Shown: positions 6,699-56,671 of the stretch, in pieces
How positions within the stretch are numbered: the stretch's first letter is position 1
Layout: the number at the start of each line of letters is the position of its first letter
Source of the DNA: Antedon mediterranea
Taxonomy: Eukaryota > Animalia > Echinodermata
Length of the DNA: 64,000 nucleotides
Reading direction: 5' to 3'
NCBI RefSeq assembly: GCF_964355755.1
Contig: NC_092671.1
Span: 15,557,742 to 15,621,741 of the forward strand
Translations under genes and position numbers: made by a program
Notes under the pieces: model-generated
Databases searched by the model: none
Seen by the model: only the letters and a program-made list of their open reading frames with translations
What the model was told of the DNA's origin: nothing

Positions 6699-6729
<31 letters not shown>

Positions 6730-18552: not shown

Positions 18553-23589
<5,037 letters not shown>

Positions 23590-30390: not shown

Positions 30391-30437
30391 ATGGATAACG
30401 TTCACGTTGCTATACGTGTTCGTCCTCTAATAACAAG
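30391..30437 (+). CDS. CENPE: CENP-E-like exon 1 (start)
   Basis: aaata ATG GAT AAC ...; donor acaag|gtcagt. Confidence 0.85.
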
Positions 30438-33400
30438 GTCAGTGAATTTTCATAATTTGTCTATTTTATATATATTGTGTATATTTATACTCTGAGATTT
30501 ACTTCATACAGTATGTGAATATTTATCAAAACCTTTAAGAAATGGAAAGTCTAACGATTATTTGATAATTGTTTTATTTGAATTTAATGTTATAGGGAAT
30601 CCAGTCATGATACAAACTTACATTGGAAGGTGGAAAATAGTACGATATATCAAGTAGATTCAAAGAATAAAAATGTTGGAAAACCCTATACTTTTGGTAG
30701 GTCTTCTGTTCGAAACAGCAAATATGTATGTTGTTTGTTCATTTAAACTAAAAGAAGAGTGTCAATTTATTTTTATATTATCTGATTTTGTTTAGATCTC
30801 ACAAATTGAATTCTGTTCATTTTGTTTCAGATTATGTTTTTCATATGGGACAATCAACAAATGATGTATATTCACAAGTTGCAGAGCCTATTATAGAATC
30901 AGCTATGGATGGATATGATGGTACTATAATAATATATTATATAACACCCAAATAAATTCCTTCCTGGCGTGCAATAGTACGCACTATTGAATTGTTATTC
31001 AATAGTACCTTTTTTCTCTATTTTTCATGTACATAAAACCTTTTTTAAATATAACATTTACTATATTATAAAAAACCTAATATATATATATAATTGTTTT
31101 GCAATCACCTAATTGAAATATAACCTTTCATCATTCACCTCATGTCATTATTTGTACCATTACACTCATAAACATTCATTATTTGTATAATATGATGAAA
31201 ATGAGTAATTAAAGATGTATTGTCCCCCTGAAAAAATAATTTTTGTTGAATATGCCATTTTAATGTAACATAATAGTTATCAACTTTGACCAAAAATTGG
31301 ATCGGAAAAAAAATGTATGTACCTAAAAAAATGTCAAATTGGCTGCCAGCCCAGGGCCGTAGCCAGGATCTGTCAAGGGGGGGTTCGGACACTAAATATT
31401 TAGTGCATCAGGCCCCACCCCCAGATGCGAAGCGAATTTTGTTAAATGACACCCCTAGATGGCCGGAAAAGACACTCTCATGCAGCATTCTACCAATGAG
31501 CAAAAAGATTGTACTTTTTTCCTCCTTCTCAAACACGTCGATAATTTAAAGGACGATAACTATTTGTTGCCGTATGTTAGATGCGCGTGCTCTGTGCGGA
31601 ACCGCCGCTTGTTTGATCATTTACTCCGTATTTTGTTTTGCGTTCAAGTTCAATGCGAACGTACATCTAGGAGCAGCCCCGAAAAAAGCACACTGGTTGA
31701 AGGTAAATGCTATTTGCTAGCTCTATCTATAATATTTATTTACAGCAATTTGTTGAGGAATACAAATATGTAAATAGGTGATATTGATACATTTTAGTAC
31801 GCATCGGCTGGTGGTCTAGAAAAAAATAATCGGATGCCATAATGTGAACTACAGTACTTGATACCATAGATATTATAGTGTAAAATATTAATATTCACTA
31901 TAATCCTCTATGATACATAGTCACACATAAATACTGATGTACGTCGGAAGGCTATATACTTTATGCATGCTGCCTGACTGCCAGTGATCTAAACAATTAT
32001 AGGTACGCAGTTGTCTGGCGGTGTCCTTTGTACGAATCGTTCGTGCCCCAGTTCGCTATGAAACGTGTCAATATCATGTTACATGCAGGGACCAAACATT
32101 TATTTTTCAGGTTAAAATCGGCAATTCATTTGCAGCTTTTAGAAATTTACAGACACGTATCGCTAGTTGACGCTCATACAGAGAAGAAGGTTCACGAACA
32201 AGTTTACGAATTTTTCAATTTACAAACAACTTTTTGTACTGTGGGGCACGTATTTGGAGGATTTTTGGAGATGAGGGTGAGGTATTGGGCATGTCGGGGA
32301 TGGGGGTTCGCAGTCGGTTAAGGGGGTTTCGCTGTAAAGGGGGAGGTTCGCCCGAACCATAAAAACCCCCCCTGGCTACGGGCCTGCAGCCAGTGGGTTT
32401 TTGGTTGAATTTAGCCATTTATTTTATCGTTTTATAAGTGAAAGCATTTTTTTTTTGTTTTTTTTTTCTACAGAAGGGTTTAACTTTTTTAAAACTACAA
32501 AATAACATATTCAAAGTCTGATTTAATTAATCTTCATGTTTTTGGGGGACAATACATCTTTAATCTATTGCTTTTTTTTACTGTACACAATTCAGTCAAA
32601 ATGCTGACATGACATACACAAAGATATACAGTAATGTCACTGTGTATCATAACCCTACCACCACACATTAGAATCTTTGTCTGACTTTTACTATACAAAC
32701 CTCTTGTTGCTAATACTATTGTTGTTTATTTGATGTTAAAGGTACTATTTTTGCCTATGGGCAAACATCCAGTGGCAAAACGTTCACAATGCAGGGTAAT
32801 GCGAGTATACCTGGAATAATTCCAAAGGCAATTCAACAAATTTTTAATACCATTGACCAGGTAGGATGAACTTCAAATAAAAATAATTTAGACACTCTGA
32901 TCTTTGATTAAATTATATTTGTTTTTACATTTCTTGTGTGTACTGTAATATAAAAATATATTTATTTTCAACCAATGGCACTTTTTGACAGCTCTTGGGT
33001 TGTATTTATTTATAATGATTTTTTTCTTTTTGAAATCTATAATTTTTATAATAAATTAATTCAGAATTTTAGGATATCAGATACTGTATATACAAAAAAC
33101 ATGAATTCTTGGTTTTTTTAAGGCATTAACAAAGAATGTTTTTTATAGTCAACTGATAGAGAGTACCTATTGCGAGTTTGTTACATGGAGTTGTACAATG
33201 AAGTCATCACAGATCTTTTGTGTAAAGATGGAAAGGGGCTAAACATCAGAGAACAAGAGGTAAATGAAATAGTATGTGGTAGAAATACAAGCCATTAACA
33301 ATATGTATATTTGCATTTATTCTATGTAAATGCTATGAAGAAATGCACTCATGCCTGATGAATTATTCTTCTCCAATAAGATAACATCAAATTCAAATTA

Positions 33401-36400
33401 TTTGCCCCATTTCACTCATAAACATTCAATAATTATAATGAAGGTTTATGAGTGCAATAGGGCAAATAATTTTATGAGGTGAAAAATGAAAGGTTACATT
33501 TTCACGAGGCGAATCTGAATGAAAATAGATCATTTCATCTTTCCCCGAATTAAATTACAACATCGTCATGTGTTCTGGCTACTCACTGTGACCCACAATC
33601 GTCCAATCAAATGACAAAAATCGAATTAGGTGTGCTATAAAAAGATAACCAAAAGTACATTTTTATTATAGACATAATTCACCTAAGTATAATGTATATC
33701 TTTTCTTGTAGAAACGTGTGTTTGTTAGTGGTTTGACTGAAGAAGTTGTTAATAATGCGGATAAGATAATTGACCTATTAAAGAAAGGGGACCGTAAGTT
33801 TACAGTAACCTCTTTTTTAACAGTTAAAAAATGTATCTAATCTGGTAGAAGATATGTCAATACACACCTAGGTTAACTCTGTTTTATACACGTAAAGCTG
33901 ATCATAATCATATACTAAGTTATAGTGTGATGTCCCCAAATATGGTAGTGATATGACTTTATCGTGTCTATATATAGGTACATCACATTTTTTTGTCACA
34001 TAAAGTTTGATAGTGTTGACAGAGCTTTACATCCATTAACCACGATATAACTCTGATAGCTTTCAGATGTACTGTGCATCCAATGTAACTTTAAAATGAT
34101 ACATTAGTTAGTCAAACAATTCCCATTGGTGGTATCTCAGATGTTTAACCGGTATATGTTGCGCTAGAACAGAACTGCGAGGTAACTCTGATAGTGGAAA
34201 GAGTGTGAAACATAGCTTAATACCATATATCCTCTTGTATAATCCCACCCCCATTGAACACGAGATTGGGCACACTTTGGAGGGTGGGACTATACCTGGG
34301 GAAACCCTGGTTCAGGAAAAAGATGTAAAAAGAAAAGTATTTCTTGTAAAACCTCATCTAAACTGGCTAGAGAGCCTACATCCAGACGAAAAGTCAATAC
34401 TGCAACTATACCTAGGGATGTGCCTTACAAAGAATAGGGGGTTAGACCAGAAGTGGGATTAAACCAGAGGACATACGGTATAGAGTTCTGCGGTGTGACG
34501 TCACAACGATAGATGGCGCTGCGTGGTTGCAAGCCAACCAAAAAATGTGTTCAACACTACTATACTATGTTGATAAACTATATACATCTGTATTTCTATA
34601 AAATTATGTATCTTAGCTTGATTTTTTTTTAACTTAAACTGTAGTTGAAGAATAAATAGATTATTAAAAACAAATATTTAATGATCTTTTGAAATCTTAG
34701 TTTGTTTTTATTAATAATTATTAAGTTTTAAAATGACTAATCAATAAGCCTATTCCAAACCATTGGAGTCACTCGGGCTGGTTGCATGCAGCACCACCTA
34801 CCATCGTGACGTCAGCACAGCAGAACTCTATGTATCATTATCAACCTTTTTTTACAGAACAACGACACGTCGGACGGACAAATATGAATGAACATAGTAG
34901 CAGATCACATACTATTTTCTGTATTGTAAGTCATTTATTTGATAAAAGTTATTTTTTAGACATATAATTGTACAATAATTCATTGAATTCTGGCCTGTAT
35001 TTATGATTTTAAGTGGCTCGTAATATTGAATATTCTATATTATATTTTCCCATTCTGGGTAACATTCATTGATAACAGAAAGAGAATTTGGTTGGAAGTT
35101 CATGATTCATCTATCTACTTGTAGATTTCAACCACATCCACTCCATTGCATCAATACTTTTTCCTATTGTACTATATGCCTACTGTATTTGCTAGATCTT
35201 AATATTTCATTCTAATTCATAGGTTATTGAATCACGTGAAAGAACCAATAATCGCCAGTCATATGATGGAGCTGTTAAAGTTTCTAGACTAGTAAGAATA
35301 CAATAACTTTCTAAATTATTTTAACTAGAACAGAATGAAACAAAGTTTTAAAGTAGTTTATGTCGGTTTTTGTTGGCTAAAATCTGTTTTGAATGAGTCT
35401 TAAATTTATCTAAAATGTTATTTTATGTTTGAAGAATCAAGGAACTTGCCAATGATTATAAATCATTCTGATAATCATAATCATACAGATATATAAATAG
35501 TACTAACAAAAAGTTGTTTTTTTTTAGAACCTTGTTGATTTGGCTGGTTCTGAGCGAATAAATGAAACAAAAGCAGAAGGTGTGCGTTTGAAAGAAGCAT
35601 GTAACATCAACAAGAGTTTGTTTGTATTGGGACAAGTGATCAACAAGCTTAGCTCTGGATCAGATTATATTCCCTTCAGGGACTCAAAGCTGACTCGAAT
35701 CCTGCAACCATCACTTGGAGGCAATGCAAAGACTGCCATAATTTGTACTGTCACACCGGCAGCCATCGATCAGACGCATAACACGCTTCAGTTTGCCAGT
35801 CGGGCCAAGACCATCAAGAACAAACCAGAAATGCATGAAATCTTGTCTGATGAGGCGTTGCTAAGACGATACAAAAGTGAAATTGAAAACCTCAAAAAAC
35901 AAATTGATCAGGTAATTCATTTTTTAAAAAAGATTATGGATTGATAAGTCCAATCTTAACATAGGTTATTTGTCAGGTAATTCATTTAAAAAAGATTATA
36001 CGGATCTAGTCCAATCTTAACATAGGTGTTTGTTGATTAGATTTTTACCGTTTATATAATATTATTCTCAGTTTGATAAACAGGATAAACTAAAAGATGG
36101 TTGGCAATCTCTAGAGAATGAAAAGAGACAAATGGCAGAGGAAAATCAAAAACTGATTGAAGCTAGAAATCGTTTGGAAACAATGGTTATATCAGGCCAG
36201 GGTGAATCCATTCCGAAGAGCAAGAAAAGGGTAAGATTTAAAATAAACAATTGATACCATACTGATGTTGATATAGAAGCCACCTCTGACACAAAATGAT
36301 CAATTCCCAATACATTTTAGTTTCCATATAACCTCACTCCCTATTTACTTTACCAAATTTAATTTTCAAGGGTGGGTTGTCCTTCCTATTAGTAAGGTAT

Positions 36401-42400: not shown

Positions 42401-45400
42401 GTCGTCGACCACCACTCATGCTGGTTACATCCCTGTTATATATAGGAAAGTTTGAAAAAAAGATTACAGCAACTGGAGAATGAGAAGTCCGACTTCCAGG
42501 TGAGCATAGATATTCAGAAGGATAAGAGTGATCGTATGTGTACTGAATTAAGAACAGAATTACAATTGACCTACCAAGAACTTTCTCAGGTCAGAGGTGA
42601 AGAAGTTCATATACCAGAAAATACTCAACATTCGGTACAAGAATTACACAACACTATTGAACGGTAAATATATATGAATGAACTATGGAAGATCTATTTA
42701 TTTACAAAAGATTTAATGTGTGAATTATAAAGCCATGTCTTGTTGAAATATAAATTTAACATTTTCTTTTTAGTCTTACAAAAGAAAGTGTGACTTTGAA
42801 AGAAGACCTACAGTTAAGCATTACAAGTGTAAGTTTTCTTGATACCATTACCACATTTTTTTTCCGGCCATGCACTAATAAATTGAAATAATCAAATATA
42901 GAGATTTGATTTTGCAGAGTGTTGAGATTCAAGAAGATCTTATTAACTGTCAAGAGGAATTGGAACAATGTTCAGACAAGTGCAAGAAATTAAAGACTGA
43001 AGTTTTAACCCTCCACAAGGAACTGGAATGTTCCAGAAAGGTATCAGAAGAAAGAGTTACTCAACCTGAAGTAAGCAACCTACAAGATCAAGAGATGTAT
43101 ACACAAGAGATTGAAGCACTTAATAGCAAAATACTGGCTCTTCAAGAAGAACTGGAATGTTCCAGAAAGGTATCAGAAGTTAATCAACCTGAAGTAAGCA
43201 ACCTACAAGATCAAGAGATGCATACACAAGAGATTGAAGCACTTAATAGTAAAATACTGGCTCTTCAAGAAGAACTGGAGTGTTCCAGAAAGGTATCAGA
43301 AGTTAATCAACCTGAAGTAAGTAACCTACAAGATCAAGAGATGCATACACAAGAGATTGAAGGACTTAATGGCAAAATACTGGCTCTTCAAGAAGAACTA
43401 GAGTGTTTCAGAAAGGCATCTGAAGAAAGAGTTACTCAACCTGTAGTAAGTAATCCACAAGATAGCCAAGAGATGCATAAACAAGAGATTGAAGCACTTA
43501 ATGGCAAAATACTGGCTCTTCAAGAAGAACTTGAGTGTTCCAGAAAGGCATCAGAAGAAGGAGTTACTCAACCAGAAGTAAGCAACCTACAAGAGATGCA
43601 TACACAAGGGATTGAAGCACTTAATAGCAAAATACTGGCTCTTCAAGAAGAACTGGATGGTTCCAGGAAGGCATCAGAAGGAAGAGGTAATGAAAGGGAA
43701 GTAAGCACCATTCAAGAGATGCATAAACAAGAGATCGAAGCACTTAATAGCAAAATACTGGCTCTTCAAGAAGAACTGGATGGTTCCAGAATGTTGGCAG
43801 AAGAAAGAGTTACTCAACCTGAAGTAAGCAACATACAAAACCAACAGATGCATACACAAGAGATTAAAGCACTTAATAGCAAAATACTAGCTCTTCAGGA
43901 TAAACTCCAGCAGAAAGGGGAGAATGCACATGAAGAAGAACTAGAGATTGTCAAGAATATTGAAAAAAAGACAACTGAGGATAATTTGACAGTTTTGACG
44001 ATGCAGGAAACTCTACAGGAACGTGAAAAAGAGTGTGAAACTCAGAGGATTATCATAGTTTCTCTTCAAAAAGAAATTGAGCAACTGTCTTCTAATGATA
44101 TGGAATTACAAGAAAAGGAAGCATGTGATATAAATGGAAGCAATCAGGGGACTAGTAACATGGTTCTTCAAAAAGAATCGGATCACACTGCTGCAGAAAA
44201 GGAACATCCAGACAAAGAATCTGACATAATTTGTAATTTGCAAATGCAATTGAATGTGAAGACAAATGAATGTGAAACTTTAAATGAAATGGTGGTCTCC
44301 CTTCTTGAACAACTAGAAAAAGACAAAGAGTTTAAAGAAAGTGCTGAGGAGAGTGACTTAAAAGTCAAAGTTATAGAGCTTGAACGAAGATTGGAATTAA
44401 GTAGAGATTACGAGGTAGAACTTGAATCTCAAGTAGAAAATTTAAGAGAACTAACTATGATCAATGAATATGAAAATCCAGAAATTAATTCAAAGGAAAC
44501 GTTAATGGATGTTGCTGAGAACGATCCAGAATTGATTTCAGAAAGGGATACTACTTCAGGTAATAAATGCTCAGAAGAAGAAGATATCAGTTTAGATGAA
44601 AGTGAGAATATAACATCAGCCAGTATGGCTACAGTAGAATATGGTGAAAACAGGAAAAAGAATCTTGAATCAAAAGTTACTGAATTACAGGTTCGACTAG
44701 AAGAGATGACAGATTTACTGACGGAAATGTCGAAAAAACTTGAGCACTCGGAAGAGATGCTGAAATTCTCAAAAGATTATGAAGTTGAACTTGAAAGGCA
44801 ATTGGAAGAAGCAAATAAGAGCAAGGAACAGCAGATGGAAATGTTTAATAGGGATCAAGCTGAGACAGAATCAAAATTGGCTGATATGGAAACCAAAGTA
44901 TATGGCTCAGAGGCTAGTTATACAACTATAGAGTCAAAACTGACTGATGCAGAAGCCAAGTTGGTTTTTATGGAGTCTAATATAAGGGAAACCGAGGCGA
45001 AGTTTGCTGAAATGGAATCTAAGATTGTTGAGTTGAAATCAAAGCTTGCTGAATCGGAGGTTAAAGTTGAACAATGGAAGGTTGAAGCGGAAAGGAATAA
45101 ACGTTTGATTGCAGAACAGAGCATGAGCACTGATATGATGACAACACAGTAAGTTGATCTAAATATGAACTAGTATGAGCTTGTATGCTTTCTGCTTTAA
45201 AAATATGGTTCTTGAGACTACATATCTTCTAATACAGTATCTCTATATATTATTGTGAATACTGTGTTCAAAAAGATAATGTTTTTTATATATCCAGGCT
45301 TGAATCGTACAGACAGACTGCTGATCGTGCAAAGGGTGCACTTTTAGCTGAGAGCAACCGTGAGCTTGACCAGCAACGCAAGATTGAAACTCTTGAAAAT

Positions 45401-48400
45401 GCCCAGAAAGAGTCAGTAGCAGTTTTTCAACAGGCCAGTAAAGAAAAAGATGAGATTATTGCAGGTCTGGAGAAGAAGACCAAAGATCTATTGACCAAGT
45501 TAAGACAAACAGAAGCAGAGAGTGATCAAGCCACCCACAGGTCATTGCAGATGGAAAGAGAATCCCAGGTATAATTAATTATTTCAATTGTAAAATAGAT
45601 TACGGATAGAAATTGAACAGAGAATGGCCTATTAAAAAAATTACATTCATTTATACAAAGAAAATACAATTAACAGATTTACAATAAAAATCAGTACTGT
45701 ATAGATCATAAAAATACAATGTTATATTTCATCTTCTCTACCAGCCATGATGTTCTCGCATGTTATCAATGTTATGGTATACATACCTAACAAAAAGCTT
45801 GAAAAGCCTGCTATAAATGAGATCGCAGAAATTATCGAAGGTATTGAGTGTAGTCACCCTGAGGCGCTTGTAATTATCAATGGCGATTTCAACAGATGCA
45901 AGCTCAAGAAAACAACTGCCACATATTATCAGCATGTTACATGTAAAACGAGGGACAACGCGATTCTTGATTTATGCTACTCTAGTGTGAAGGATGCCTA
46001 TATTTCGACCCCACTACCGAACTTGGGCAAATCTGATCATAATTTGATTTTACTCAGTCCTAAATATCGCCCGTTAAATAAGACATGCCAACCAAAAATT
46101 ATTAATGTACGTAAATGGTCTCCTGAAGCCGAGGAAGCCCTGATAGCAGAATTTGAATCTACCGATTGGGATATTTTTACGGAGGATGAAGATTTGAATA
46201 GTATTACTTATGCAGTGAGCTCGTACATAAACTTTTGTATTGATAAATGCGTTCCAGTTAAAAAAGTGAAAATCTACCCTAATAACAAGCCATGGATCAC
46301 GAAAGGCGTTAAATTACTGTTGTGTGAGAAACGTAAAGCCTTTAAGATGGGCGACTCTAATCGTATGAAAATATTGACTAGAGAGATTAAATCTGAAATA
46401 AGGAAACAGAAGAACATTTATAGGAAAAAAGTTGAACATAACTTCAGGTCTAATAATATGAAACAAGTTTGGCAGGGTATTAAACTTATGAGTGGTTACA
46501 CAAACGGTGGTAATACACCCACCTCGATTCCGAATGTTACTGTGCAATATGTTAATGAGTTAAATGAATTTTATAACCGTTTTAATGTTCATGATTTTAA
46601 AAAAGAAAGAGAGGCCCTATTTAGCTTGTGTCGGGTGACTGAAGATGATCCCAAATTTAGTATAAGCATTTCTGATGTACATAGCGAATTCATGAAACTC
46701 AATTCATCGAAGGCTGCTGGGCCGGATAGAATCCCACCACGAGTACTTAAGGTCTGCTCTCCTCACCTTGATGGTATATTTACATTTATTTTCAATATGT
46801 GTCTTTCTTATCATGCGTTCCCGGATATTTGGAAACTTTCATGCATAATACCGGTACCTAAGAAACCTAAGATTAACAGCATGAATGATTTGAGACCCGT
46901 TGCACTCACGTCTGTCGCGATGAAAATATTGGAACGTATTATTTTAAAAATTATGCAACCTTATGCTGAAAAAGTGTTAGACCCGTTGCAATTTGCTTAC
47001 CGATCACTCCGTAGTACCAGTGATGCGATTTATTTTAAATTACATAAATTGTATTCACATCTAGATAATGTAAAGAAAGGCCACTCGGCACGTATTATGT
47101 ATTTTGATTTTCAGTCTGCGTTTAATACCATACAACCCCATATCTTAGCAGACAAAATGTTGAATATGGAGTTTCCCCGTCCGATTGTTCGTTTAGTTTT
47201 AAATTTCATTTGTGATAGAAAACAATTTGTTAATATTAATGGTGTTAAGTCAGAAATCGTAACCTCTGACACCGGTGTTCCTCAGGGTACTGTCAACGCA
47301 CCTAAATTATATTCCTTGTATACGGCCGATTACAGATCTTTAAATGATGAGCTTTGCCCCGTTGTTAAATTCGCTGATGACACTAGTACTATTGGTCTCA
47401 TAGTTTCAAACAATGATGAAAATTATCGTAGCGAAATACAAAGATTTGTAAAATTTTGTGACGATAATTATCTCCAAATAAATGCATCAAAAACAAAGGA
47501 GATGATCATTGATTTTAGGACTAAACATAAATTTAATTTTCAACCAATCACTATCAAAGGTAAAGAAATTGAAATTGTTGACCAGTACAAGTATCTAGGA
47601 ATTGTTTTCAATGATAAACTGAATTGGGGAGACCATATAGACTACATCAGCAAAAAATTAAATCCCAGAATGTATTGTATGAGAACTTTATATAAATTTA
47701 ACTCCTGTGATTTGATGTTACTTTCGTTTTATAGATCCGTTATATGTAGTGTTTGGACGTATTGCCTCTCCTGTTGGGCTGGTAATGTTACCGGAGGGAA
47801 TAAAGGACGCCTTGAAACTTTCATCCGTCGGGCTGGTAAAATGATTGGTCTGGAACTGCCTTCCTTTACCGATGTGCACCTAGAACACCTCCAGAAAGAT
47901 TTCGAACGCATTGAGTCGGATGCCTCTCATCCTCTCCACAAAGTGATCATAGACCAACTTAATCCAAGTGGTAGATTGAGGCTCCTCAGTGTGAAAACAA
48001 ATCGATTTGCTAAATCCTTTATTCCCTCCGGTATCATCCAGTACAACAGGAAGTCAAGAAGATAATTTTATCTTGTAATTTTTTAGATGTTTTTATATGA
48101 ATGGTTTTATGCTATATTTGTTTTTATTGTGTTTTCTTTGTTATTATGACGAGCAATGAATTTCCTTGTTGAGGATCAATAAAAGTTATCTTATCTTATC
48201 TTATCTTATGTAATATTTACTTTTATGTTTAAAGGACCTTCGTGATCGTGTAAAGGAGCTGGAGAATCACGCTTTTGATAATCGCCAGTTAACATGCAAA
48301 CAAGATATGGATCCTGCTAAGCTTGCACAACGTTTAAAACAAGTGGAGTTCAACCTTGATATAACAAAGCAAAAGGCAGATAAATTTGAGAAAATAAACA

Positions 48401-51400
48401 AAGAACTTAAAGGTTCGTACATAAATGATAAATGTATTTAAGTAATACCATATACATGAATATTATTAAGTTTAATTTGGACACAAGACTTTGGTAATTC
48501 ATTGATAATGCATGTGCAACAAGTATAATCTCAGCTGATTTTTCACAACTTTTGCACCCAGACATTGTGATACTCATATGCGGGAATAGCAGTAATAGTG
48601 TACTATGGTATGTGCCTATACAGTAAAGCAGAATTGCTGTTTCCTCTCGCATATTTCCATTTTCTTTCTTATTTTATACATTTTTTGGTTATGGTAAATT
48701 TACATTCTCTCTATTTTTTTTTTCAATTTTAGACTCAAATAAGAAATTTGAAGCCAATGAGTTCAAAGCAAATGATCTTGAGAAACAGCTGAGGGATGTC
48801 AACTTTGAATATGAGCGCCATCGCACACAGTATAATCGGTTGAAGTCTCGTTACGATAACATTGTAGTTGAACTAGCAGATATCAAACACAAACTGGCTA
48901 AATCGGAGATGAAAAATGCTGGTATTGATACTGATAAAATGAGGAATGACCTTTGCACTCTTGAGAAAGAGAGCATTAAACTAAAAGACAGAGTCAGCTT
49001 AAGTGATAAGAAAATCCTGCAGCTTGAGAACAGGATTGCAATTGATGATAAGGATAAAGTACACATACAAGATAAAATGAAATCTTTACAGGTAACATTA
49101 ACTATGTACAATAATAAATGTCATATCCATTTTGCCATCAATTATATAACGTGATAGAATTTGTTATTTATTTTTACAGGGTAACCTCTTCAGTCAAAGA
49201 CTGGTCTCCCAGAGGGCCAGTTATAATCAGTGGCTGTGTGTATACTAGTACACAGGGGTAACCCCCTACTCATCTCAAAAAATGTACTAGGTTCTTTAAA
49301 TTGCACATGAGCTAGATGTGTACACTGGACCTACGGTTTATCCGAGAAGACTCGTTCTACTACCAGAACCATATGGAGCGAGTGAGCCTAGAACCCTTGC
49401 CGATGTTATGGCTATGTAATTACGATTCCACTGTCTTAACGGCTCGGCCACTCACTCGCTAAGTACATATAAATATAAAATATTCATTTCATATAGGATG
49501 AGCTGCAGTATAACAAAACTACAATTCAGGAATTACAGTTAGAAAAAGAACACACACTGAAGAAAATGGAACAGAATGAGAAACATTTCAACAGCGTTTG
49601 TCAAGAACTGGAAAATGAGTTGACCGCATGTAAGAAGCTGTTAACAGAATGCCAAGAGCAACTTCAAGATTCAATGGTATTTGGAATATTTATGTATTGT
49701 ATTTAGTGTTTTCAATAAATTAAAAAAGCTTGTGAAAATGTGTAAGACATTGATTGATTGATTATACAGTATTTGACTACATGCATTTTGAAACATACCA
49801 AAGGGATACATTCTACCAAAGTATTATCTTCAATGAAGGCAAGACCGGTTTGGTTTGTAGATCAGTAATTCAATATGATTTGTTGTGATATTACAGGAGA
49901 AGGAAATGAAATTTAAGACAGAAATTGAAGAACTTAACGAAGAGAAAGAAAATGTGAATGAAAGGTTAACGACGATGGAGGAAGAACTAGAAAAGCAAAG
50001 CAGTCAACATGAACAAGAAATTAACACATTACAGGTGGGATGAGCTACATTTATTTATTATTTTTTTATTTAGTAAGTAATTAATTAAGGGCATTTCTAA
50101 TAAATGAAGCTCTGTCTACACTATCAAATTATCTGACGAAAAACTTGATGTGCCCATATATGGACCATATCTAAGCAAATCACTACCATATATGAACATA
50201 TCACACTTTTTGTTGTAAAACTAGTTTGATAGTGTAAACAGAGCTTAGGACAAATTGAAATAATGAACCCAATTTGGTGAGAGTAAGAAAAAAAAACTGT
50301 TTTAATAAACTGAATTAGGAGGATTTTATGAATTGTGTGACCAAGATGGATGCAGTTAGAGAAGAGAACAATCGAGCCAATGAGAGAATTAAAGAAGTGG
50401 AGATAGAAGCTAAGGAAAAAATGGAAAACATTCAGGAAGAGCTAGCTGAACAATCACTGAAACACCAACAAGAAATGGATACATTACAGGTATAGTTATC
50501 TCATCTTCTTTTACTGTGCAGAACTGTGTTTAAGTATAGTGGTACATGATGTTTGCATTTGATAATAACAATTACCGTAAGGAATGTTGCTATCAATTCT
50601 AATCTAATTAATAAATCTAATAGAAAGATGCAATGAAGTATATGGCTGAAATGGCCAACATGAAAGAAGGAAAAGAAATTTCCAATGATCAACTTAGAGA
50701 AGAGTTGACAGAAGCTGAGCTAAAAATAGAAAACATTGAAAAAGAACTTGCAGACCAATCAACAAGATATGAACAGGAACTCAAGTCGTTACAGGTGGGC
50801 TAACATTTTAATCATTTAACTAGAATACAAGAATACGCCACTGCTGTAATTTCTTCATTATTGGTTATTAGTTTAGTACCCTAAAGTATAATTAAATTTT
50901 CTTGAATCTAATTTAATAGGAAGATGGAATGAAATACATGACAGAAATAGAACAACTTAAAGAAGAGAAGGAAAAGATAAATGAAATGTTAAAGGAACAA
51001 ATTGTAGAAGCTGAAAAGAAACTAGAGACAAATCAAGAACAACAAGAAAAACAAAGTATTCAGCATCAACAAGAAATTAGCACATTACAGGTAGGAACCG
51101 CTACATTAATTAAAACAATAAATAGGACAAATTGTCTTAAACTGTAAGTACTTAGAAGCATATCGAACCATGTAAGCATGAACCCAATTTGGTGAGATGA
51201 AAGTGAACATAAATCATTGTCAATACCATACCTTTTTAATTGAATTAGGAGGATTTTATGAATTGTATGAGCAAGAAGGATGCACTTAGAGAAGAGAACA
51301 AACGAGCCAATGAGAGAATTAAAGAAGTGGAGATAGAAGCTAAGGAAAAAATGGAAAACATTCAGGAAGAGCTAGCTGAACAATCACTGAAACACCAACA

Positions 51401-54400
51401 AGAAATGGATACATTACAGGTATAGTTATCTCATCTTCCTTTACTGTGCAGAACCGTGTTTAAGTATAGTGGTACATATTAGGGAGGTTTCGCAACCTTA
51501 CAAATACGATAACGAAAACGGATATGTCATACATTTGTGAAACTTTTGAGCTGATCCCCATTTCATATTCGTAAAGCGTATTCGTGTTGACGAATATCAC
51601 CAGTCATATTCGTAACTACAAAACGAGTATAGTTTTTGATCTATTTTGCACATTTTGCATTTGAATCAGGAATGATTCATGATTATAATATAATTATAGA
51701 TTTATTGAAAGTAATTTACTAAAGTAATTTACTAAAATGCCAAGTCAATTTTGATAAATAGCAGTTTTTAAAGTCCTCACTCGCTTTGATGTTACGCTAG
51801 GCCTAGGCAGCCAAGCACCAAGCAACACGTACCTGCGCTTCGCTCAAATTTACCGCAGTCATATTTTGGACGCGCCTTAATATTTCGTTGCCATGCGAAA
51901 CAGATTTTTTATGACTTACGAAAACGAATATGTGTGCGTGACGTATCCGTTTTTGTTATCGTATTCGTAAGATTGCGAAACCTCTCTAATACTTATGATG
52001 TTTGCATTTAATAATAATAATTGCCATAAGGAATGTTGCTAACAATTCTAATCTAATTAATAAATCTAATAGGGAGATGCAATGAAGTATATGGCTGAAA
52101 TGGCGAACATGAAAGAAGGAAAAGAAATTTCCAATGATCAACTTAGAGAAGAGTTGACAGAAGCTGAGCTGAAAATAGAAAACATTGAAAAAGAACTTGC
52201 AGACCAATCAACAAGATATGAACAGGAACTCAAGTCGTTACAGGTGGGCTAAAATTCAAATACTAGAAAAAAGAATACGATACTGATCCGCAAGATGCAA
52301 TAATATCTCATTATTTGTTTAGATTGTAGATACCTTCAGTTTTTAGTTTGTAAAACTAAAAGTACCCTAAAGTATAGTGTTTTTTTTTCTATAAATGACA
52401 TTCTTCTTGAATCAAATCTAATAGGAAGATGGAATGAAATATATGACAGAAATAGAACAACTTAAAGAAGAGAAGGAAAAGATAAATGAAATGTTAAAGG
52501 AACAAATTGTAGAAGCTGAAAAGAAACTAGAGACAAGTCAAGAACAGCACCAACAGGAAATTAGCACCTTACAGGTAGGAAACACTTCCTTGAAAATTGT
52601 TGATATTGTTTAGATGAGAATGATAACTAGACAAATGACACTCCTATTTGTTTTGAAATGTCTTACATACAGACTGATTCAATCAAATACATGACTAAGA
52701 TGGAAATGCTAAAAGAAGAAAAGGATGCTGCCAATGTCAGACAGATAGAAGATGAAGAAACAATAGAAAGAGTCAAGCAAGAGGTAGCAGATCAATCTAT
52801 TAGATATCAACAAGAAATCAATACATTGATGGTATGTTTACCTAAATGGCCAGTAACTGTTATACAAATAATAAATATAGGAGTTTCAATGTGAAAAATG
52901 TTTCACGAGTTGGAAGATTGGCTATTCAATTTAACGAAATGAGTTTATGCATGCTTGCAATGAACGAAATTATTCCCCTCAATCAACAAGTATAAAACAT
53001 GAATTATTTGTTTTATAACACACCTAACACAATCAATCGATTTTACCATGCAATAAAGTTTATCACAAATAGCGAGAGCGATGCATGATGAAGAAATTGG
53101 GAGCAATAGCGCCACCACCAGTATATAAAGTTATTGGCTATTTCTCCCAACCATTCCCATCATGCATTGTGCAATGACGTTCCTCGCAAAATCAAGCTAT
53201 TTGCAATAGACATTATAGAACTAATACAGGTGTGTTATACAATGTAATGTTGTCGTTGTGTACAAGTACATGATATTATTCCCAAGAACAATATTAGAAA
53301 GAAAGTATCTATGAATGACATTAATGTGTGAAAAGTTCTCATGTAAAGACAATCGAGCTATATTCATGTACACCTGAACAAGGAAGCTATGCATCATGTA
53401 GTTTGTGATCTTGTTTGATGTATTTGTTTAGATTTTAGCATTTGTTCTTTGTTTGTTCTAACTTACAGTGTAGCATAAAGGACTTACAAATGGAGCTAAC
53501 ATCACTGCAGGAAACAAACGAGGCTGCAGAACAAGACGATTGGGCTTTAAGTAAAGTTTGCAATGATCTTAAATTAGAATTGGAGGAAGAACGGCAACAA
53601 AAGAAACAAATGAATGATGTATTGAAGCAAGAACAAGTAAGTTGTAAAAAAAAAATATATGGCTTTATTTAAAAATGTTTCAATTTAACAATTGTATTGA
53701 AGTAACAAAGTACTTGGCGTATTTTATGGTCGCTCTTTGTGTTTTCCAACTGATGAATACGTGTAGATAGTGCACCCTCTTCCGGATGAGATGTTAAGCT
53801 GTTGGTCCTGTGTGCAACATGGCTCATGTGCATGTTAAAGAAATTGGGCAGTACACCAGGAGATTCGAAGATTGTACTGTCCAAGTCGAAGATATCCTTG
53901 GTGTACTACTACTACTGTGTCATGTATAATTATTCTGTTTTTCAGTTATGCATTTCTTCGCATTTGATTACTACTTTAATTGTAATAATTTGATTGTTAC
54001 TTTAAAAAAATGATTATGTATAAGTTATATATCTATTTTTTTCTGTAGGATAAGTGTTCAGATCTGATGTCAAAACATGACTTGTTGGTGAGTCAACTAG
54101 AAAAATTAAAACGTTCAGAATGTGATCTTGAAAAGTTGTGCGATCAGATCCAGGAGGAACAAGAGGAAGAAGAAAGAAAACATAAAGAAACAAAAGAAAA
54201 ATTAAACAAATTAGAGGTAATTTACTAGTTTTTTTGTTGTTTGTGTGCTCAGTCATAAGTTGTAATAAGTGTTTTTCTGGTTTCTTTCATTTATTAAACC
54301 ATACTTAGTATGTAAATTTCTGGAATTGTTTGGAAGTACGGTATATGAAATCCATGTAATTTGACCAATTGTCAATTGGTTTAATTGCTTGTGTTGTGCT

Positions 54401-56671
54401 CTATCCCAAAAATTACTTTCTTCTGCTGCAGGAAAAATATTCAAAACATGACGTTTTAGTGAGTCAACTAGAAAAAATGAAACGTTCAGAAAGTGATCTA
54501 GAAAAGTTGTGTGATCAGATCCAGGAGGAACAAGAAGAAGAAGAAAGAAAACATCAAGAAACAAAGGAAAAATTAAACAAATTAGAGGTAAGAGGCCATT
54601 TGTGTTTTTAATCTATTATTTTTGAATATTTTAGTGTTTTGAAATGGTTGTCTTGTACTTTTATATCCTATACTTTTTATAATCGATTATTTCAATTTTT
54701 TTGTTTTAGAAAAAGTTTTTAGACTTTAAACAAAAATTTGCTGAAATAAATGCAGCATGCGAAAAGATTAAAAAGGAAAAGAAAGACGACGAAACAGAAC
54801 TTAAAAAGACAAAAACTAAACTGGCTGAACTTGAGGTGAGAAGACGTTTAATATTTGAAACAATATTCAATATGTACAATTGTGCAATGCTATATTAAAC
54901 CAATATTTACATTTATTTTACTTCAAAAATTAAATATCGATAATAAAAGCACAACAAAAAAAAACCAACTGTACTGTTCTATCTCAATAGCAATAACCTA
55001 TGTAAATACCGATACTTTTGTTATTTTATTCTTTAGTAATTACATTACCTTTAAATTGTGTTTAAAATTATTTGTTTTGATGTTGTTAGGCCACTGTAAA
55101 AAAGAACCAGTATTTAACAGATGTAAATGCACTAAAGGCCCTTCAACAAGAGCTTCTGGATAAGAAAATGAAAATTGTGTCCTTAGAATCGGAAATTCTA
55201 AAATGTACAGACCCTCTTGAAAAAAGGTAAGCCTTTATATAATTATGAAAGCTAGTGTACACTAGGAAACTTGATCAAACTTTTTTACTTAACAAATCGC
55301 TAGTTTCCTCATATCTTTCACAATTTCATTACAATTGAATTTGCAATACTTTGAAAGTTTGAAATACAATACTATTAGTAAATTTTGTTAATTTTTAGAA
55401 TTTCTCAACTTACCAAGGAACTTGCTGACAGTTTTGAGAAGGTTGAAAGTTGGAAGAATGAAGTGAAAAGATTGCGAAGACTTGATAACGCAGGTACACA
55501 TTTATATAAATATTTTTACCAACAGAATGTCACAATAGTCTTCTTCTCCACATGCCATGTCTTACAAACGATTATGGCTTTCCAATTGTTCAATCTGAAA
55601 CTGTTTCAGTATTCAGTTTGGTGGCAGCACTCGACATGAAGGGACCTTCAGGGGAGTAGAAAGTTGTGGTATGTGTCATCCACACCCAGTAGGCTGCAAG
55701 TTGCAGGTTATTCCCCCATTTACATGGATGTATTATGAAAGTTGGTAATGTGATCATTTGTTTATATTGTAGAGGATGGCAACACCTTGCGAAGATCAGA
55801 GGCTGGTTCTTCCGGGTCTGGCATCATTCAGGAATGTGCTGTGTTTACCCTGAAAGCAGAGAAGTCTAAGCTGGAACTGGAGTTGAAGAAATCAAAACAC
55901 AAAGTTAATGATCTTGAAAAGAAATACAATGAGAAAAGCATGTTTTACCAAGAAGAAATGTGCGTAGTTGGTCACTTGTTGTAGATGTTATGTTATAATA
56001 TAATGGTAGTTTTATTTCAACGGTATGCATTTATCAATTCTCACTGTGTAGTTTTTCTGTTTTTCTTAGTACAAGAAACACAAGACTTCGAGCTGAATTG
56101 AAGCGCTATGTGGAAAAAGTTAGTAGAATTGAGAAATTTCAAGAACCAACAGCTAAAGATGGAAAGAGGCCTCTCAATGGTAAGAGAATGGTTTTCTTTT
56201 ATGTAAATAGTTTCCAAAAATATATCTTTGTAACACAAACATTGGAATTTTGATATTTTATTTAACCTCAACACATGCTAAAATCGTTTACAGAAGCTAA
56301 CATACCAATTGACTGAATAGATGTTTCAATTTAGTCAATCCCGTACAACTGTCATATTCACATTATGTAATAGTAAATATCAGATCAGGAATAACACAAC
56401 ATTTGAGACACATGTACACACTACTTGTTTGATTTGTCTGAAATATGTTAATATAATTTTATACAAAATTTATTTAGATATTCCCACAAATAGTCCGGTT
56501 AAAAAGGCAGCAAAAGTTCACACAACCGTGGAGAGTTTACCAAAAGGTTCGAAGTCTACTACATTAACTGCAATAAAGAAGACAAAACCAAACGACTGGG
56601 ATAATTTTTTGCAGCCTGCCATTGAACAATTAAATGAGGAAGACAATCCTAAACAATGTACTCAACAATAG
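30391..56671 (+). CDS. CENPE: CENP-E-like kinesin-7 (centromere-associated protein E), complete CDS, 40 exons, 2753 aa
   Basis: N-terminal kinesin motor: [25 protein letters not shown]-loop, SSRSHTIF switch [11 protein letters not shown] switch II, neck [15 protein letters not shown] long coiled-coil stalk follows. The C-terminus is ...NPKQCTQQ then stop: a CAAX-type box (vertebrate CENP-E ends CKTQ). Exons, all GT-AG except one GT(gcgt) donor, phase checked, total 8262 nt: 30391-30437, 30596-30696, 30831-30920, 32742-32860, 33149-33259, 33712-33793, 34858-34925, 35223-35291, 35528-35911, 36072-36230, 36613-36790, 36962-37128, 38034-38209, 38710-38830, 39074-39193, 39602-39736, 42446-42663, 42773-42827, 42918-45148, 45298-45568, 48235-48412, 48732-49090, 49497-49676, 49897-50034, 50319-50489, 50624-50794, 50920-51090, 51249-51419, 52073-52243, 52425-52574, 52673-52831, 53469-53636, 54049-54216, 54432-54587, 54710-54835, 55090-55226, 55399-55493, 55773-55959, 56070-56179, 56478-56671. 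Confidence 0.9.
30596..30696 (+). CDS. CENPE: CENP-E-like exon 2 (motor)
   Basis: ttatag|ggaatcc ... ttttg|gtaggt. Confidence 0.85.
30831..30920 (+). CDS. CENPE: CENP-E-like exon 3 (motor)
   Basis: tttcag|attatg ... gatg|gtacta. Confidence 0.85.
31209..32563. mobile_element. Non-autonomous DNA transposon family C, about 1.35 kb (TIR TTAAAGATGTATTGTCCCCC)
   Basis: 31209 ttaaagatgtattgtccccc ... gggggacaatacatctttaa 32563. It has GC-rich sub-terminal inverted repeats (31350-31390 versus 32290-32390). It lies in CENP-E intron 3. The ORFs 31286-31773 and 32215-32418 sit inside the element. Confidence 0.7.
32742..32860 (+). CDS. CENPE: CENP-E-like exon 4 (P-loop GQTSSGKT)
   Basis: ttaaag|gtactatt ... 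gaccag|gtagga. Confidence 0.9.
33149..33259 (+). CDS. CENPE: CENP-E-like exon 5 (motor)
   Basis: ttttatag|tcaactg ... caagag|gtaaat. Confidence 0.85.
33405..33520. mobile_element. Small hairpin/MITE-like element (cactcataaacattca ... tgaaggtttatgagtg)
   Basis: Internal inverted repeat; a related inverted fragment lies at 31120-31160. Confidence 0.4.
33712..33793 (+). CDS. CENPE: CENP-E-like exon 6 (motor)
   Basis: cttgtag|aaacgtg ... ggacc|gtaagt. Confidence 0.85.
33893..34027. mobile_element. MITE family A copy, 5' TIR degraded
   Basis: 3' TIR tttgatagtgttgacagagcttt and core ccccaaatatgg. Confidence 0.5.
34225..34484. mobile_element. MITE family B copy
   Basis: atatatcctcttgtataatcccaccccc ... 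gtgggattaaaccagaggacatacggtatag. Confidence 0.6.
34482..34829. mobile_element. Tc1/mariner-like MITE (TIR AGAGTTCTGCGGTGTGACGTCAC, TA flanks), about 350 bp
   Basis: 34482 agagttctgcggtgtgacgtcac ... gtgacgtcagcacagcagaactct 34829, flanked by TA on both sides. The TIR contains the CRE palindrome TGACGTCA. Its 3' end is 28 bp upstream of the exon 7 acceptor. Confidence 0.65.
34858..34925 (+). CDS. CENPE: CENP-E-like exon 7 (switch I SSRSH)
   Basis: tttacag|aacaacg ... tgtatt|gtaagt. Confidence 0.85.
35223..35291 (+). CDS. CENPE: CENP-E-like exon 8 (motor)
   Basis: ttcatag|gttattg ... gacta|gtaaga. Confidence 0.85.
35528..35911 (+). CDS. CENPE: CENP-E-like exon 9 (switch II DLAGSE, neck)
   Basis: ttttag|aaccttg ... 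gatcag|gtaatt. Confidence 0.9.
35909..36035 (+). repeat. About 65-bp tandem duplication copying the exon 9 splice donor
   Basis: caggtaattcatttttaaaaaagattatggattgataagtccaatcttaacataggttatttgt is followed by a second copy caggtaattcatttaaaaaagattatacggatctagtccaatcttaacataggtgtttgtt. Confidence 0.85.
36072..36230 (+). CDS. CENPE: CENP-E-like exon 10
   Basis: tctcag|tttgat ... aaaagg|gtaaga. Confidence 0.8.
36613..36790 (+). CDS. CENPE: CENP-E-like exon 11
   Basis: tttttag|ccaaac ... tgatg|gtatgt. Confidence 0.8.
36962..37128 (+). CDS. CENPE: CENP-E-like exon 12 (contains KKKRRR basic patch)
   Basis: tttacag|aatttt ... acagag|gtatgt. Confidence 0.8.
37187..37723. mobile_element. Family C MITE copy, about 540 bp (TIR AAAGATGTATTGTCCC)
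   Basis: gaaagatgtattgtcccttt ... aaagggacaatacatctttaa; in CENP-E intron 12. Confidence 0.7.
37820..37968. mobile_element. MITE family A copy
   Basis: agctctgtctacattatcaaa ... tatagtgtagacagacctt. Confidence 0.7.
38034..38209 (+). CDS. CENPE: CENP-E-like exon 13
   Basis: tttctag|aatgta ... acaat|gtaagc. Confidence 0.8.
38710..38830 (+). CDS. CENPE: CENP-E-like exon 14
   Basis: tggcag|ggaaat ... attgag|gtatta. Confidence 0.8.
39074..39193 (+). CDS. CENPE: CENP-E-like exon 15
   Basis: tccctag|ataaaac ... gatcag|gtaata. Confidence 0.8.
39602..39736 (+). CDS. CENPE: CENP-E-like exon 16
   Basis: gtgacag|actgga ... gagatg|gtaagg. Confidence 0.8.
39850..41777. mobile_element. hAT-like non-autonomous element, about 1.9 kb (TIR CAGGGCTCGATTTA), carrying a nested insertion
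   Basis: 39850 cagggctcgattta ... taaatcgagccctg 41777. Sub-terminal tagcccactgggcta / tagcccggagctg repeats. It contains the nested element at 40139-40898 and AGGCCT-rich tracts. It is followed by (CATACACTCATTCC)x3. Confidence 0.55.
40139..40898. mobile_element. hAT-like MITE (short derivative of the 27039-30016 element), 8-bp TSD AATTAACT
   Basis: Same TIRs ggcgctactgcagtttcgcaccacac ... gtgtggtgcgaaactgcagtagcgcc. The first 230 bp and last 380 bp are 90-95% identical to the ends of the 2.98-kb copy. The octamer aattaact is duplicated at both flanks. Confidence 0.8.
41894..42436. mobile_element. hAT-like MITE (TIR CAGGGATGTCACCA), 8-bp TSD TT(T/A)TATAT
   Basis: cagggatgtcaccacgg ... tggttacatccctg. 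Internal palindromic G/C homopolymers (ccccccccacccgattttttttggggggaggggggg). It ends 10 bp before the exon 17 acceptor. Confidence 0.6.
42446..42663 (+). CDS. CENPE: CENP-E-like exon 17
   Basis: tatatag|gaaagt ... gaacg|gtaaat; the acceptor is 10 bp from a hAT-like TE terminus. Confidence 0.8.
42773..42827 (+). CDS. CENPE: CENP-E-like exon 18
   Basis: tttttag|tcttac ... acaagt|gtaagt. Confidence 0.75.
42918..45148 (+). CDS. CENPE: CENP-E-like giant coiled-coil exon 19 (2231 nt) with internal 41-44-aa tandem repeats
   Basis: Corresponds to the six-frame ORF 42906-45152. Acceptor ttttgcag|agtgtt, donor acaca|gtaagt. Confidence 0.9.
43000..43900 (+). repeat. Coding tandem repeat, 123-132-bp units x about 7, inside CENP-E exon 19
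   Basis: The 41-44-aa unit [10 protein letters not shown](ERVT/V)[29 protein letters not shown] is repeated in frame. Confidence 0.9.
45298..45568 (+). CDS. CENPE: CENP-E-like exon 20
   Basis: atccag|gcttga ... cccag|gtataa. Confidence 0.8.
45735..48210 (+). mobile_element. 5'-truncated non-LTR retrotransposon (CR1/L2/Rex1-like) with a long intact RT ORF
   Basis: ORF 45747-48065 (772 aa): C-terminal part of the AP-endonuclease (INGDFNRC), an RT domain with [18 protein letters not shown] and FADDT motifs, and a 3' tail ending in (TTATC)4 at 48190-48210. It lies in CENP-E intron 20, sense orientation, 25 bp upstream of the exon 21 acceptor. Confidence 0.85.
48235..48412 (+). CDS. CENPE: CENP-E-like exon 21
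   Basis: tttaaag|gacctt ... ttaaag|gttcgt. Confidence 0.8.
48732..49090 (+). CDS. CENPE: CENP-E-like exon 22
   Basis: atttag|actcaa ... ttacag|gtaaca. Confidence 0.8.
49497..49676 (+). CDS. CENPE: CENP-E-like exon 23
   Basis: atatag|gatgag ... caatg|gtattt. Confidence 0.8.
49897..50034 (+). CDS. CENPE: CENP-E-like exon 24 (ends ..QEINTLQ)
   Basis: ttacag|gagaag ... tacag|gtggga. Confidence 0.8.
50107..50246. mobile_element. MITE family A copy
   Basis: Same TIRs; core gtgcccatatatggacc. Confidence 0.75.
50319..50489 (+). CDS. CENPE: CENP-E-like exon 25 (57-aa module, ends ..QEMDTLQ)
   Basis: aattag|gaggat ... tacag|gtatag. Confidence 0.8.
50624..50794 (+). CDS. CENPE: CENP-E-like exon 26 (57-aa module, ends ..QELKSLQ)
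   Basis: taatag|aaagat ... tacag|gtgggc. Confidence 0.8.
50920..51090 (+). CDS. CENPE: CENP-E-like exon 27 (57-aa module, ends ..QEISTLQ)
   Basis: aatag|gaagat ... tacag|gtagga. Confidence 0.8.
51249..51419 (+). CDS. CENPE: CENP-E-like exon 28 (near-identical duplicate of exon 25)
   Basis: aattag|gaggat ... tacag|gtatag. Confidence 0.75.
51481..51985. mobile_element. MITE (TIR AGGGAGGTTTCGCAA(C/T)CTTAC(A/G)AATACGATAAC(G/A)AAAACGG), about 505 bp
   Basis: About 40-bp terminal inverted repeats. It is present in duplicate copy 2 (the intron after exon 28). The paralogous intron after exon 25 has the empty site ggtacat-gatgtttgc. Confidence 0.8.
52073..52243 (+). CDS. CENPE: CENP-E-like exon 29 (duplicate of exon 26)
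   Basis: taatag|ggagat ... tacag|gtgggc. Confidence 0.75.
52425..52574 (+). CDS. CENPE: CENP-E-like exon 30 (duplicate of exon 27 with a 21-nt deletion)
   Basis: aatag|gaagat ... tacag|gtagga. Confidence 0.75.
52673..52831 (+). CDS. CENPE: CENP-E-like exon 31
   Basis: catacag|actgat ... tgatg|gtatgt. Confidence 0.75.
53469..53636 (+). CDS. CENPE: CENP-E-like exon 32
   Basis: cttacag|tgtagc ... aacaa|gtaagt. Confidence 0.8.
54049..54216 (+). CDS. CENPE: CENP-E-like exon 33
   Basis: tctgtag|gataag ... tagag|gtaatt. Confidence 0.8.
54432..54587 (+). CDS. CENPE: CENP-E-like exon 34 (paralogous to exon 33)
   Basis: gctgcag|gaaaaa ... tagag|gtaaga. Confidence 0.8.
54710..54835 (+). CDS. CENPE: CENP-E-like exon 35
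   Basis: ttttag|aaaaag ... ttgag|gtgaga. Confidence 0.8.
55090..55226 (+). CDS. CENPE: CENP-E-like exon 36
   Basis: ttgttag|gccact ... aaaag|gtaagc. Confidence 0.8.
55399..55493 (+). CDS. CENPE: CENP-E-like exon 37
   Basis: tttttag|aatttc ... cgcag|gtacac. Confidence 0.8.
55773..55959 (+). CDS. CENPE: CENP-E-like exon 38
   Basis: attgtag|aggatg ... gaaat|gtgcgt (non-canonical GTGCGT donor, the weakest junction in the model). Confidence 0.65.
56070..56179 (+). CDS. CENPE: CENP-E-like exon 39
   Basis: tcttag|tacaag ... caatg|gtaaga. Confidence 0.75.
56478..56671 (+). CDS. CENPE: CENP-E-like terminal exon 40 (CAAX-type box CTQQ, stop TAG 56669-56671)
   Basis: atttag|atattc ...; agrees with the six-frame ORF ending at 56671. 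Confidence 0.85.

Follow-up and report, generated by a model that had tools for sequence, protein, structure and literature searches.

Nested in-frame repeats in the stalk of CENP-E from the crinoid Antedon mediterranea

The CENP-E gene and its product

The window analyzed here is a 64,000-nucleotide (nt) stretch of the genome of the crinoid (feather star) Antedon mediterranea (contig NC_092671.1, positions 15,557,742 to 15,621,741 of the forward strand), and all coordinates below are positions within it. It is AT-rich (GC about 32%), contains no Ns, and carries at 30391-56671, from start codon to stop codon on the + strand, the gene for the kinesin-7 motor CENP-E, whose stalk contains in-frame repeats of several sizes. 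The 2753-residue RefSeq protein XP_071942687.1 (isoform X1) maps to the window exactly, as 40 GT-AG coding exons with zero mismatches. The exon numbers of this mapping coincide with those of an earlier sequence-only reading of the same DNA.

Exons 1-9 (30391-35911; +, as for all features of the gene unless noted) encode the kinesin motor domain and neck, as indicated by Pfam Kinesin and by the match to structure 1T5C. The assembled motor domain, which ends near residue 357 of the 2753-residue product, scores 348 bits with Pfam Kinesin; among solved structures it is closest to human CENP-E (1T5C, 351 bits; 6M4I, 345 bits), with the next kinesin class at 262 bits. In a protein word-index search with the motor, the named homologues are mostly CENP-E or KIN-7, all of them shorter than 600 residues and at most 57% identical. 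Between motor and tail lies a stalk of about 2000 residues that is predicted to be mostly helical. When the translation of exon 19, the largest repeat-bearing exon discussed below, is run with full HMMER against 1.84 billion representative proteins, two real matches emerge, both from crinoids. The first is the other Antedon isoform, XP_071942688.1 (isoform X2, 2723 residues), which matches all 742 residues of exon 19 (its residues 772-1513) at 100%. The second is a 2873-residue protein of Anneissia japonica that NCBI has labeled 'centromere-associated protein E-like' (the source of the CENP-E name for this homologue); it is 40% identical over exon-19 query residues 339-742 only. Word-index searches with exon 19 and with the 240-residue tail gave no match, and for the tail even the source protein was missed; the index evidently overlooks proteins of this great length, and these negatives carry no weight. 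The tail, which in CENP-E holds a kinetochore-binding (BubR1-binding) region and a second microtubule-binding site, is 63-73% identical between the Antedon and Anneissia proteins.

The Antedon protein ends in ...NPKQCTQQ, with the CTQQ codons at 56657-56668 and the stop codon at 56669-56671, while the Anneissia protein ends in CAQQ; the cysteine at -4 and the terminal glutamine are kept in both crinoids, and the sequence-only reading was correct in describing a conserved C-terminal CAAX-type box. In the human CKTQ motif only C2698 and Q2701 are needed for farnesyl-dependent function, and a CAAX box is reported to be widespread in opisthokont CENP-E (PMC10630089). By analogy, it is reasonable to infer that Antedon CENP-E is prenylated.

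RefSeq labels both XP_071942687 and XP_071942688 'uncharacterized protein'. Judged by motor, architecture, orthologue and CxxQ end, the sequences identify them as CENP-E, in agreement with the name first proposed from the letters of the DNA. The motor is closest to CENP-E; the sole stalk homologue outside Antedon in the HMMER scan is CENP-E-like by its NCBI name, which in itself is no test of orthology.

Repeated units within the stalk

Exon 19 (42918-45148; 2231 nt, phase 0 to 2) supplies 744 stalk codons, and the boundaries proposed for it earlier are exact by the RefSeq protein mapping. Within it, Tandem Repeats Finder reports an array at 43020-43897 with a period of 123, 7.0 copies, 86% matches and a score of 1115. 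When this result is combined with a repeat search and with the protein register, seven young in-frame tandem units are delimited at 43017-43898, starting at 43017, 43146, 43269, 43392, 43524, 43647 and 43770. The start-to-start spacings found by the repeat search (129, 123, 123, 132, 123, 123 and 129 nt) equal the unit lengths, which correspond to 43, 41, 41, 44, 41, 41 and 43 residues; the original description of a 2.2-kb exon with about seven tandem repeats of 123-132 bp was accurate. Nucleotide identity between pairs of units is 82-96%. Across all 21 pairs the ratio of nonsynonymous to synonymous substitution rates (dN/dS) is 0.16-0.70, and every length difference between units is a multiple of three, which argues that the array is coding sequence under some constraint.

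The array has older edges on both sides. A hidden Markov model (HMM) of the unit detects a partial founder unit, whose beginning (TEVLTLH...) occupies 42996-43016; the whole match (residues 827-856, 37 bits) runs from 42996 to 43085 and thus extends into the first full unit. An eighth unit, whose second half has diverged, lies at 43842-43964 (residues 1109-1149, 63.5 bits). Downstream of the array the profile finds two or three relic units, and weak matches at residues 1159-1203 and 1249-1275 suggest that the stretch 43992-44342 holds degenerate relics resembling the units of Anneissia.

(Two other assignments for this exon were considered and set aside. A non-coding minisatellite or an array derived from a transposable element is ruled out by the reading frame, by dN/dS values below 1 and by the degenerate homologues in Anneissia. 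The Pfam candidates Enterotoxin_b (not one stretch passing) and Tropomyosin (under its cut-off) were discarded as sub-threshold coiled-coil noise.)

Farther downstream, repetition takes place at the level of whole exons. Exons 23-35 are thirteen exons in succession that all have phase 0/0, and eight of these, exons 24-31, form a cassette family: exon 24 (49897-50034, 138 nt), exon 25 (50319-50489, 171 nt), exon 26 (50624-50794, 171 nt), exon 27 (50920-51090, 171 nt), exon 28 (51249-51419, 171 nt), exon 29 (52073-52243, 171 nt), exon 30 (52425-52574, 150 nt; a copy of exon 27 minus 21 nt in frame) and exon 31 (52673-52831, 159 nt; closest to the last cassette of Anneissia). Family membership is indicated by BLOSUM62 local scores that no shuffle out of 500 equalled (z 6-15); exons 23 and 32 fall outside the family in the same shuffle comparison (z at most 3.1). 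The phase-0 symmetry and the 138-171-nt size range that had been attributed to the eight cassettes hold for every one of them. Other parts of that description need to be narrowed. The ending QE(I/M/L)x(T/S)LQ is present in seven cassettes, but exon 31 ends in ...QQEINTLM; a 57-residue module describes five of the eight, but the other three have 46, 50 and 53 residues. Gain or loss without a change of frame, which had been claimed for all of the repeated exons, applies to the cassettes and to the internal units of exon 19 but not to exon 19 as a whole, given its phases of 0 and 2.

The cassettes resemble one another at three depths. In an old layer, cassettes of differing types share 37-46% amino acid identity, with synonymous divergence (dS) of at least 1. 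In an intermediate layer, exon 24 is 77-78% identical to exons 27 and 30 at the nucleotide level and 61-64% at the protein level. In a young layer, exons 25/28, 26/29 and 27/30 are paralogous pairs with nucleotide identities of 97%, 98% and 97% and dS values of 0.00, 0.07 and 0.20, respectively; exons 25 and 28 differ by five nonsynonymous and no synonymous changes. A second, smaller family (shuffle z 6-27) consists of exons 33-35. As had been noticed from the sequence, exon 33 (54049-54216, 168 nt) and exon 34 (54432-54587, 156 nt) are a paralogous pair, with 90-93% nucleotide identity and a dS of 0.35; exon 35 (54710-54835, 126 nt) is an older member (shuffle z 5.8-6.8).

The young cassette layer is a single event, a feature on which the sequence-only reading did not remark: exons 25-27 together with their introns, about 915 bp, have been duplicated as exons 28-30. 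Self-BLAST and alignment place the first copy of this block at 50263-51177; the second, from 51178 to about 52590, has been lengthened by intron indels and by an inserted element. This 515-bp insertion (51477-51991, no strand assigned) lies in the intron that follows exon 28 and resembles a miniature inverted-repeat transposable element in having 53-nt terminal inverted repeats that are 91% complementary; it is not found in the first block copy, and no other copy of it occurs within the window.

Alleles of heterozygous marine invertebrates can differ as much as these copies do (96-98% identity), so the young copies (the block, exons 33/34 and the exon-19 units) might be imagined to be assembly artefacts, that is, false duplication of haplotypes or mis-assembled repeats. 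Several observations make this very improbable. The two block copies differ by the 515-bp element, by the 21-nt in-frame deletion in exon 30 and by many indels in one intron; the exon-19 units differ from each other by 4-18% and by in-frame indels; the window is without Ns; and the independently assembled genome of Anneissia has a like duplication at the same place.

Age of the copies and growth of the stalk

Anneissia japonica is a sister crinoid, and its longest CENP-E-like isoform maps exactly as 43 exons. In this orthologue (XP_033109348 and its isoforms), exons 1-18 and the exons of the tail match those of Antedon in phase and, exactly or nearly so, in size. The stalk repeats, however, differ. 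Anneissia has six cassettes of the common family, all of 171 nt and phase 0/0, whereas Antedon has eight; three of the six, spaced at a genomic period of 367 bp, share 94-98% of their nucleotides and 86-93% of their amino acids, with dS of 0-0.07. Anneissia exons 24-29 are a triplicated two-exon block (180 nt plus 276-309 nt); a single 180-nt exon, the first of the six, is all that Antedon has of it, which leaves five exons as an extra block in Anneissia. Where Antedon has exons 33-35 Anneissia has two exons. The counterpart of Antedon exon 19 in Anneissia is a pair of exons, 19 and 20, split by a 525-bp intron (11327-12961 and 13487-13758 of the Anneissia locus), and this region is 108 residues longer in Antedon. 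With the profile of the 41-residue Antedon unit, about eight degenerate units of ~43 residues are recovered from exon 19 of Anneissia (best conditional E 2e-9). Consequently, the exon-19 array is ancestral, and only its seven near-identical copies are confined to Antedon. In a global alignment of the two proteins every large gap falls inside a repeat region; Antedon has 241 additional residues in three places and Anneissia 418 in one block, which accounts for the 173-residue difference in length.

The comparison of repeat number between orthologues, set beforehand as a check, therefore gives differing module counts (eight cassettes against six, and exon-19 units that are only degenerate in Anneissia). 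The ages of the copies are in accord with this. In non-repeat exons, dS between Antedon and Anneissia runs from 0.7 to saturated, whereas among the young Antedon copies it is 0-0.41; the young expansions thus post-date the split of the two lineages, unless gene conversion has reset the copies. Taken together, these sequence comparisons support the proposal, also made in the sequence-only reading, that the stalk has expanded in a lineage-specific manner.

The reservation about gene conversion deserves some weight. If the copies were old and had been kept similar by conversion or concerted evolution, their low dS would reflect homogenization rather than a recent gain in length. The introns after exons 26 (50795-50919) and 29 (52244-52424) are only 68% identical and carry many indels, even though the exons beside them are 97-98% identical; this disparity may reflect gene conversion in part of the block or local turnover of indels. 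Furthermore, the cassette units group largely by species, and the degenerate Anneissia units already make the exon-19 array ancestral. Against this, the two copies of the remaining co-duplicated intron (after exon 25 and after exon 28) are 95% identical, and the number of modules itself differs between the species in the cassettes, in the family of exons 33-35 (three against two) and in the additional length of exon 19. With the large alignment gaps all inside repeats, copy number, and not only sequence, has changed. An origin of the low divergence by homogenization is accordingly judged unlikely.

A different kind of explanation would place the function of the cassettes in splicing, such that skipping of phase-0 exons by cell type or stage acts as a regulated dial for length and this use maintains the symmetric exons. 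The run of thirteen phase 0/0 exons and the recurrence of the 171-nt size, in five of eight cassettes in Antedon and in all six in Anneissia, are in line with this idea, as are the RefSeq isoforms of Anneissia. Isoforms X5, X6, X8 and X9 of that species are without exactly one or two cassettes (its exon 30, 57 residues; one other cassette, 57 residues; or two cassettes, 114 residues, in two versions), and isoform X7 has 84 residues of exon 19 removed through a GT-AG exitron. These isoforms, though, are computed models, and over near-identical tandem exons such models can stem from ambiguous mapping of reads across junctions. In addition, symmetric phases follow automatically from exon duplication, without selection for skipping, and the two RefSeq isoforms of Antedon differ not in the cassettes but by 30 residues (QVSIDIQ...YQELS) in exon 17. 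Because exons 23-35 are all phase 0/0, frame-neutral skipping of cassettes is structurally possible in Antedon; that it is a regulated dial seems doubtful.

Some details of splicing may be recorded here. The 30-residue difference between the Antedon isoforms fits the in-frame removal of 90 nt, 42500-42589, within exon 17. Most exon-19 units contain a donor-like GAA|GTAAGC (or GTAAGT), at 43071, 43194, 43317, 43578, 43701 and 43824, and at the end of the array there is an acceptor-like TCTTCAG|G at 43899, whose pairing with any of these unit donors would remove a multiple of 3 nt. The X7 exitron of Anneissia falls in the region that corresponds to these putative sites.

What the units might contribute to the protein has been approached by prediction. 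Over 370 stalk residues spanning the exon-19 array, AlphaFold2 gives a model with a mean predicted local distance difference test score of 67 that is helical with periodic breaks: each unit is predicted to form one helix of ~31-40 residues and one low-confidence break of 5-8 residues at ...TQPEVSN.... The cassettes have conserved hydrophobic columns at a 3-4 spacing, but within each stretch of 57 residues (57 = 8x7+1) there are two shifts of the best-fitting heptad register. These breaks and register shifts fit the published view of human CENP-E, in which a coiled coil about 230 nm long is discontinuous and flexible (PMC10630089). The Antedon stalk presumably forms a dimeric coiled coil as well.

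The reading that best accommodates these observations, to which we assign a probability of roughly 85%, is that the CENP-E stalk of Antedon has been lengthened by in-frame tandem duplication of DNA at three nested scales. At the first, a unit of ~123 nt (41-44 residues) in exon 19 would have been amplified to seven young copies over an older, degenerate array. At the second, a unit of ~300 bp, composed of a 171-nt phase 0/0 exon and a short intron, would have given rise to the eight-cassette family. At the third, the ~915-bp block of three cassettes would have been duplicated again. Exons 33/34 would stem from a separate, single-exon duplication. Since the copies stand head to tail and their introns have been duplicated along with them, unequal crossing-over or replication slippage between adjoining copies is the likely mechanism. 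The reading frame survives such gains and losses because each unit either has a length divisible by three or lies between phase-0 introns, and the thirteen consecutive phase 0/0 exons may be viewed as the footprint of this duplication history. If fully coiled, a unit would add alpha-helical rod of ~6 nm (41-residue unit) or ~8.5 nm (57-residue cassette), as calculated with the textbook value of 0.1485 nm of rise per residue; it would also bring a break, in the form of a proline-containing linker for the exon-19 units and of shifts in heptad register for the cassettes. The outcome would be a long, discontinuous, flexible tether, like that of vertebrate CENP-E, leading from the motor to a kinetochore-binding tail that can be farnesylated.

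A number of points weigh against this reading. The inclusion of the exons rests on NCBI's gene model, and the comparison across species is with one other species, A. japonica. The youngest copies give no demonstrable sign of selection, as exons 25 and 28 illustrate, and the 68% identity of one intron pair agrees equally well with recent duplication and with conversion among older copies. On the structural side, the AlphaFold2 run was of a single sequence as a monomer and gave modest confidence, and the heptad analysis is crude.

Whether length itself has been the object of selection can be addressed only indirectly. When most of the CENP-E stalk is removed in human cells, motor regulation, congression and attachment are impaired (PMC4116301), and by analogy stalk length is plausibly constrained; selection of these particular modules for length would be a further step. 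A more far-reaching proposal is that stabilizing selection holds the length of the tether despite turnover of its sequence, with the 171-nt cassettes serving in addition as a splicing dial with steps of ~8.5 nm. The two crinoids, after independent and differing gains and losses of modules, would then both have remained near the vertebrate length: the total is 2753 residues in Antedon, 2926 in Anneissia and 2701 in human (the last implied by Q2701, PMC10630089). This combined proposal is offered as a speculation that is probably not correct as a whole, but if it held, the crinoid CENP-E proteins would amount to a natural experiment on the tether length that a kinetochore requires.

Surroundings of the gene and comparison with known systems

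Several other features lie in the window. The intron after exon 20 contains, at 45747-48065 on the same strand as the CENP-E gene (+), an intact open reading frame of 772 residues with a Pfam RVT_1 match of 103 bits, which is probably a fairly young copy of a non-LTR (long terminal repeat) retrotransposon. Just downstream of the 3' end of the CENP-E gene, at about 58650-63540, there is a large satellite array with a basic unit of 89 bp and higher-order periods of 194, 247 and 293 bp (77-94% matches), whose units contain a palindromic GCGCAGA...TCTGCGC. The neighbors of CENP-E are a multi-exon gene with laminin-type EGF repeats at 500-10000 (+) and, at about 19400-20540 (-), an exon of a Ras/Rab-family GTPase (Pfam Ras, 71 bits); the minus-strand translation adjoining the latter includes a long tandem repeat at 19423-20100, presumably an intronic minisatellite.

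The kind of event described for CENP-E is ordinary. That it amounts to tandem duplication within a long helical protein together with duplication of symmetric exons, in a gene that was already annotated, is well supported, and apart from the points that follow, existing knowledge of CENP-E and of repeat evolution is unchanged. The Antedon RefSeq entry for an 'uncharacterized protein' can now be identified as a probable CENP-E orthologue, and the locus provides a clean, dated example of length change in the stalk of a kinetochore motor, within an exon, by single exons and by multi-exon blocks. What is most useful about it is that two crinoids have remodeled the stalk in parallel and independently while total length has stayed roughly constant. 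Since stalk length affects CENP-E function in human cells (PMC4116301), these natural length variants, and possible isoforms that skip cassettes, could guide experiments on tether length.

Like vertebrate CENP-E / KIF10 (human, Xenopus), the Antedon protein has an N-terminal kinesin-7 motor, a very long stalk and a C-terminal CxxQ. The vertebrate stalk, however, cannot be aligned with that of Antedon: only the two crinoid proteins were matched in the HMMER scan with exon 19. In the literature searched, no description of young tandem units or of duplicated exon blocks in CENP-E was found, which is not proof of their absence. Among other proteins, coiled-coil components of kinetochore and Golgi, such as CENP-F, are likewise long and helical and contain internal duplicated segments, but their sequences are unrelated to Antedon CENP-E. 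In the PEVK exons of titin and the super-repeat blocks of nebulin, symmetric exons have been duplicated both singly and in blocks, and their skipping tunes the length of the protein. Titin and nebulin are not coiled-coil kinesin stalks, and it is in evolutionary mechanism alone that they and Antedon CENP-E are alike.

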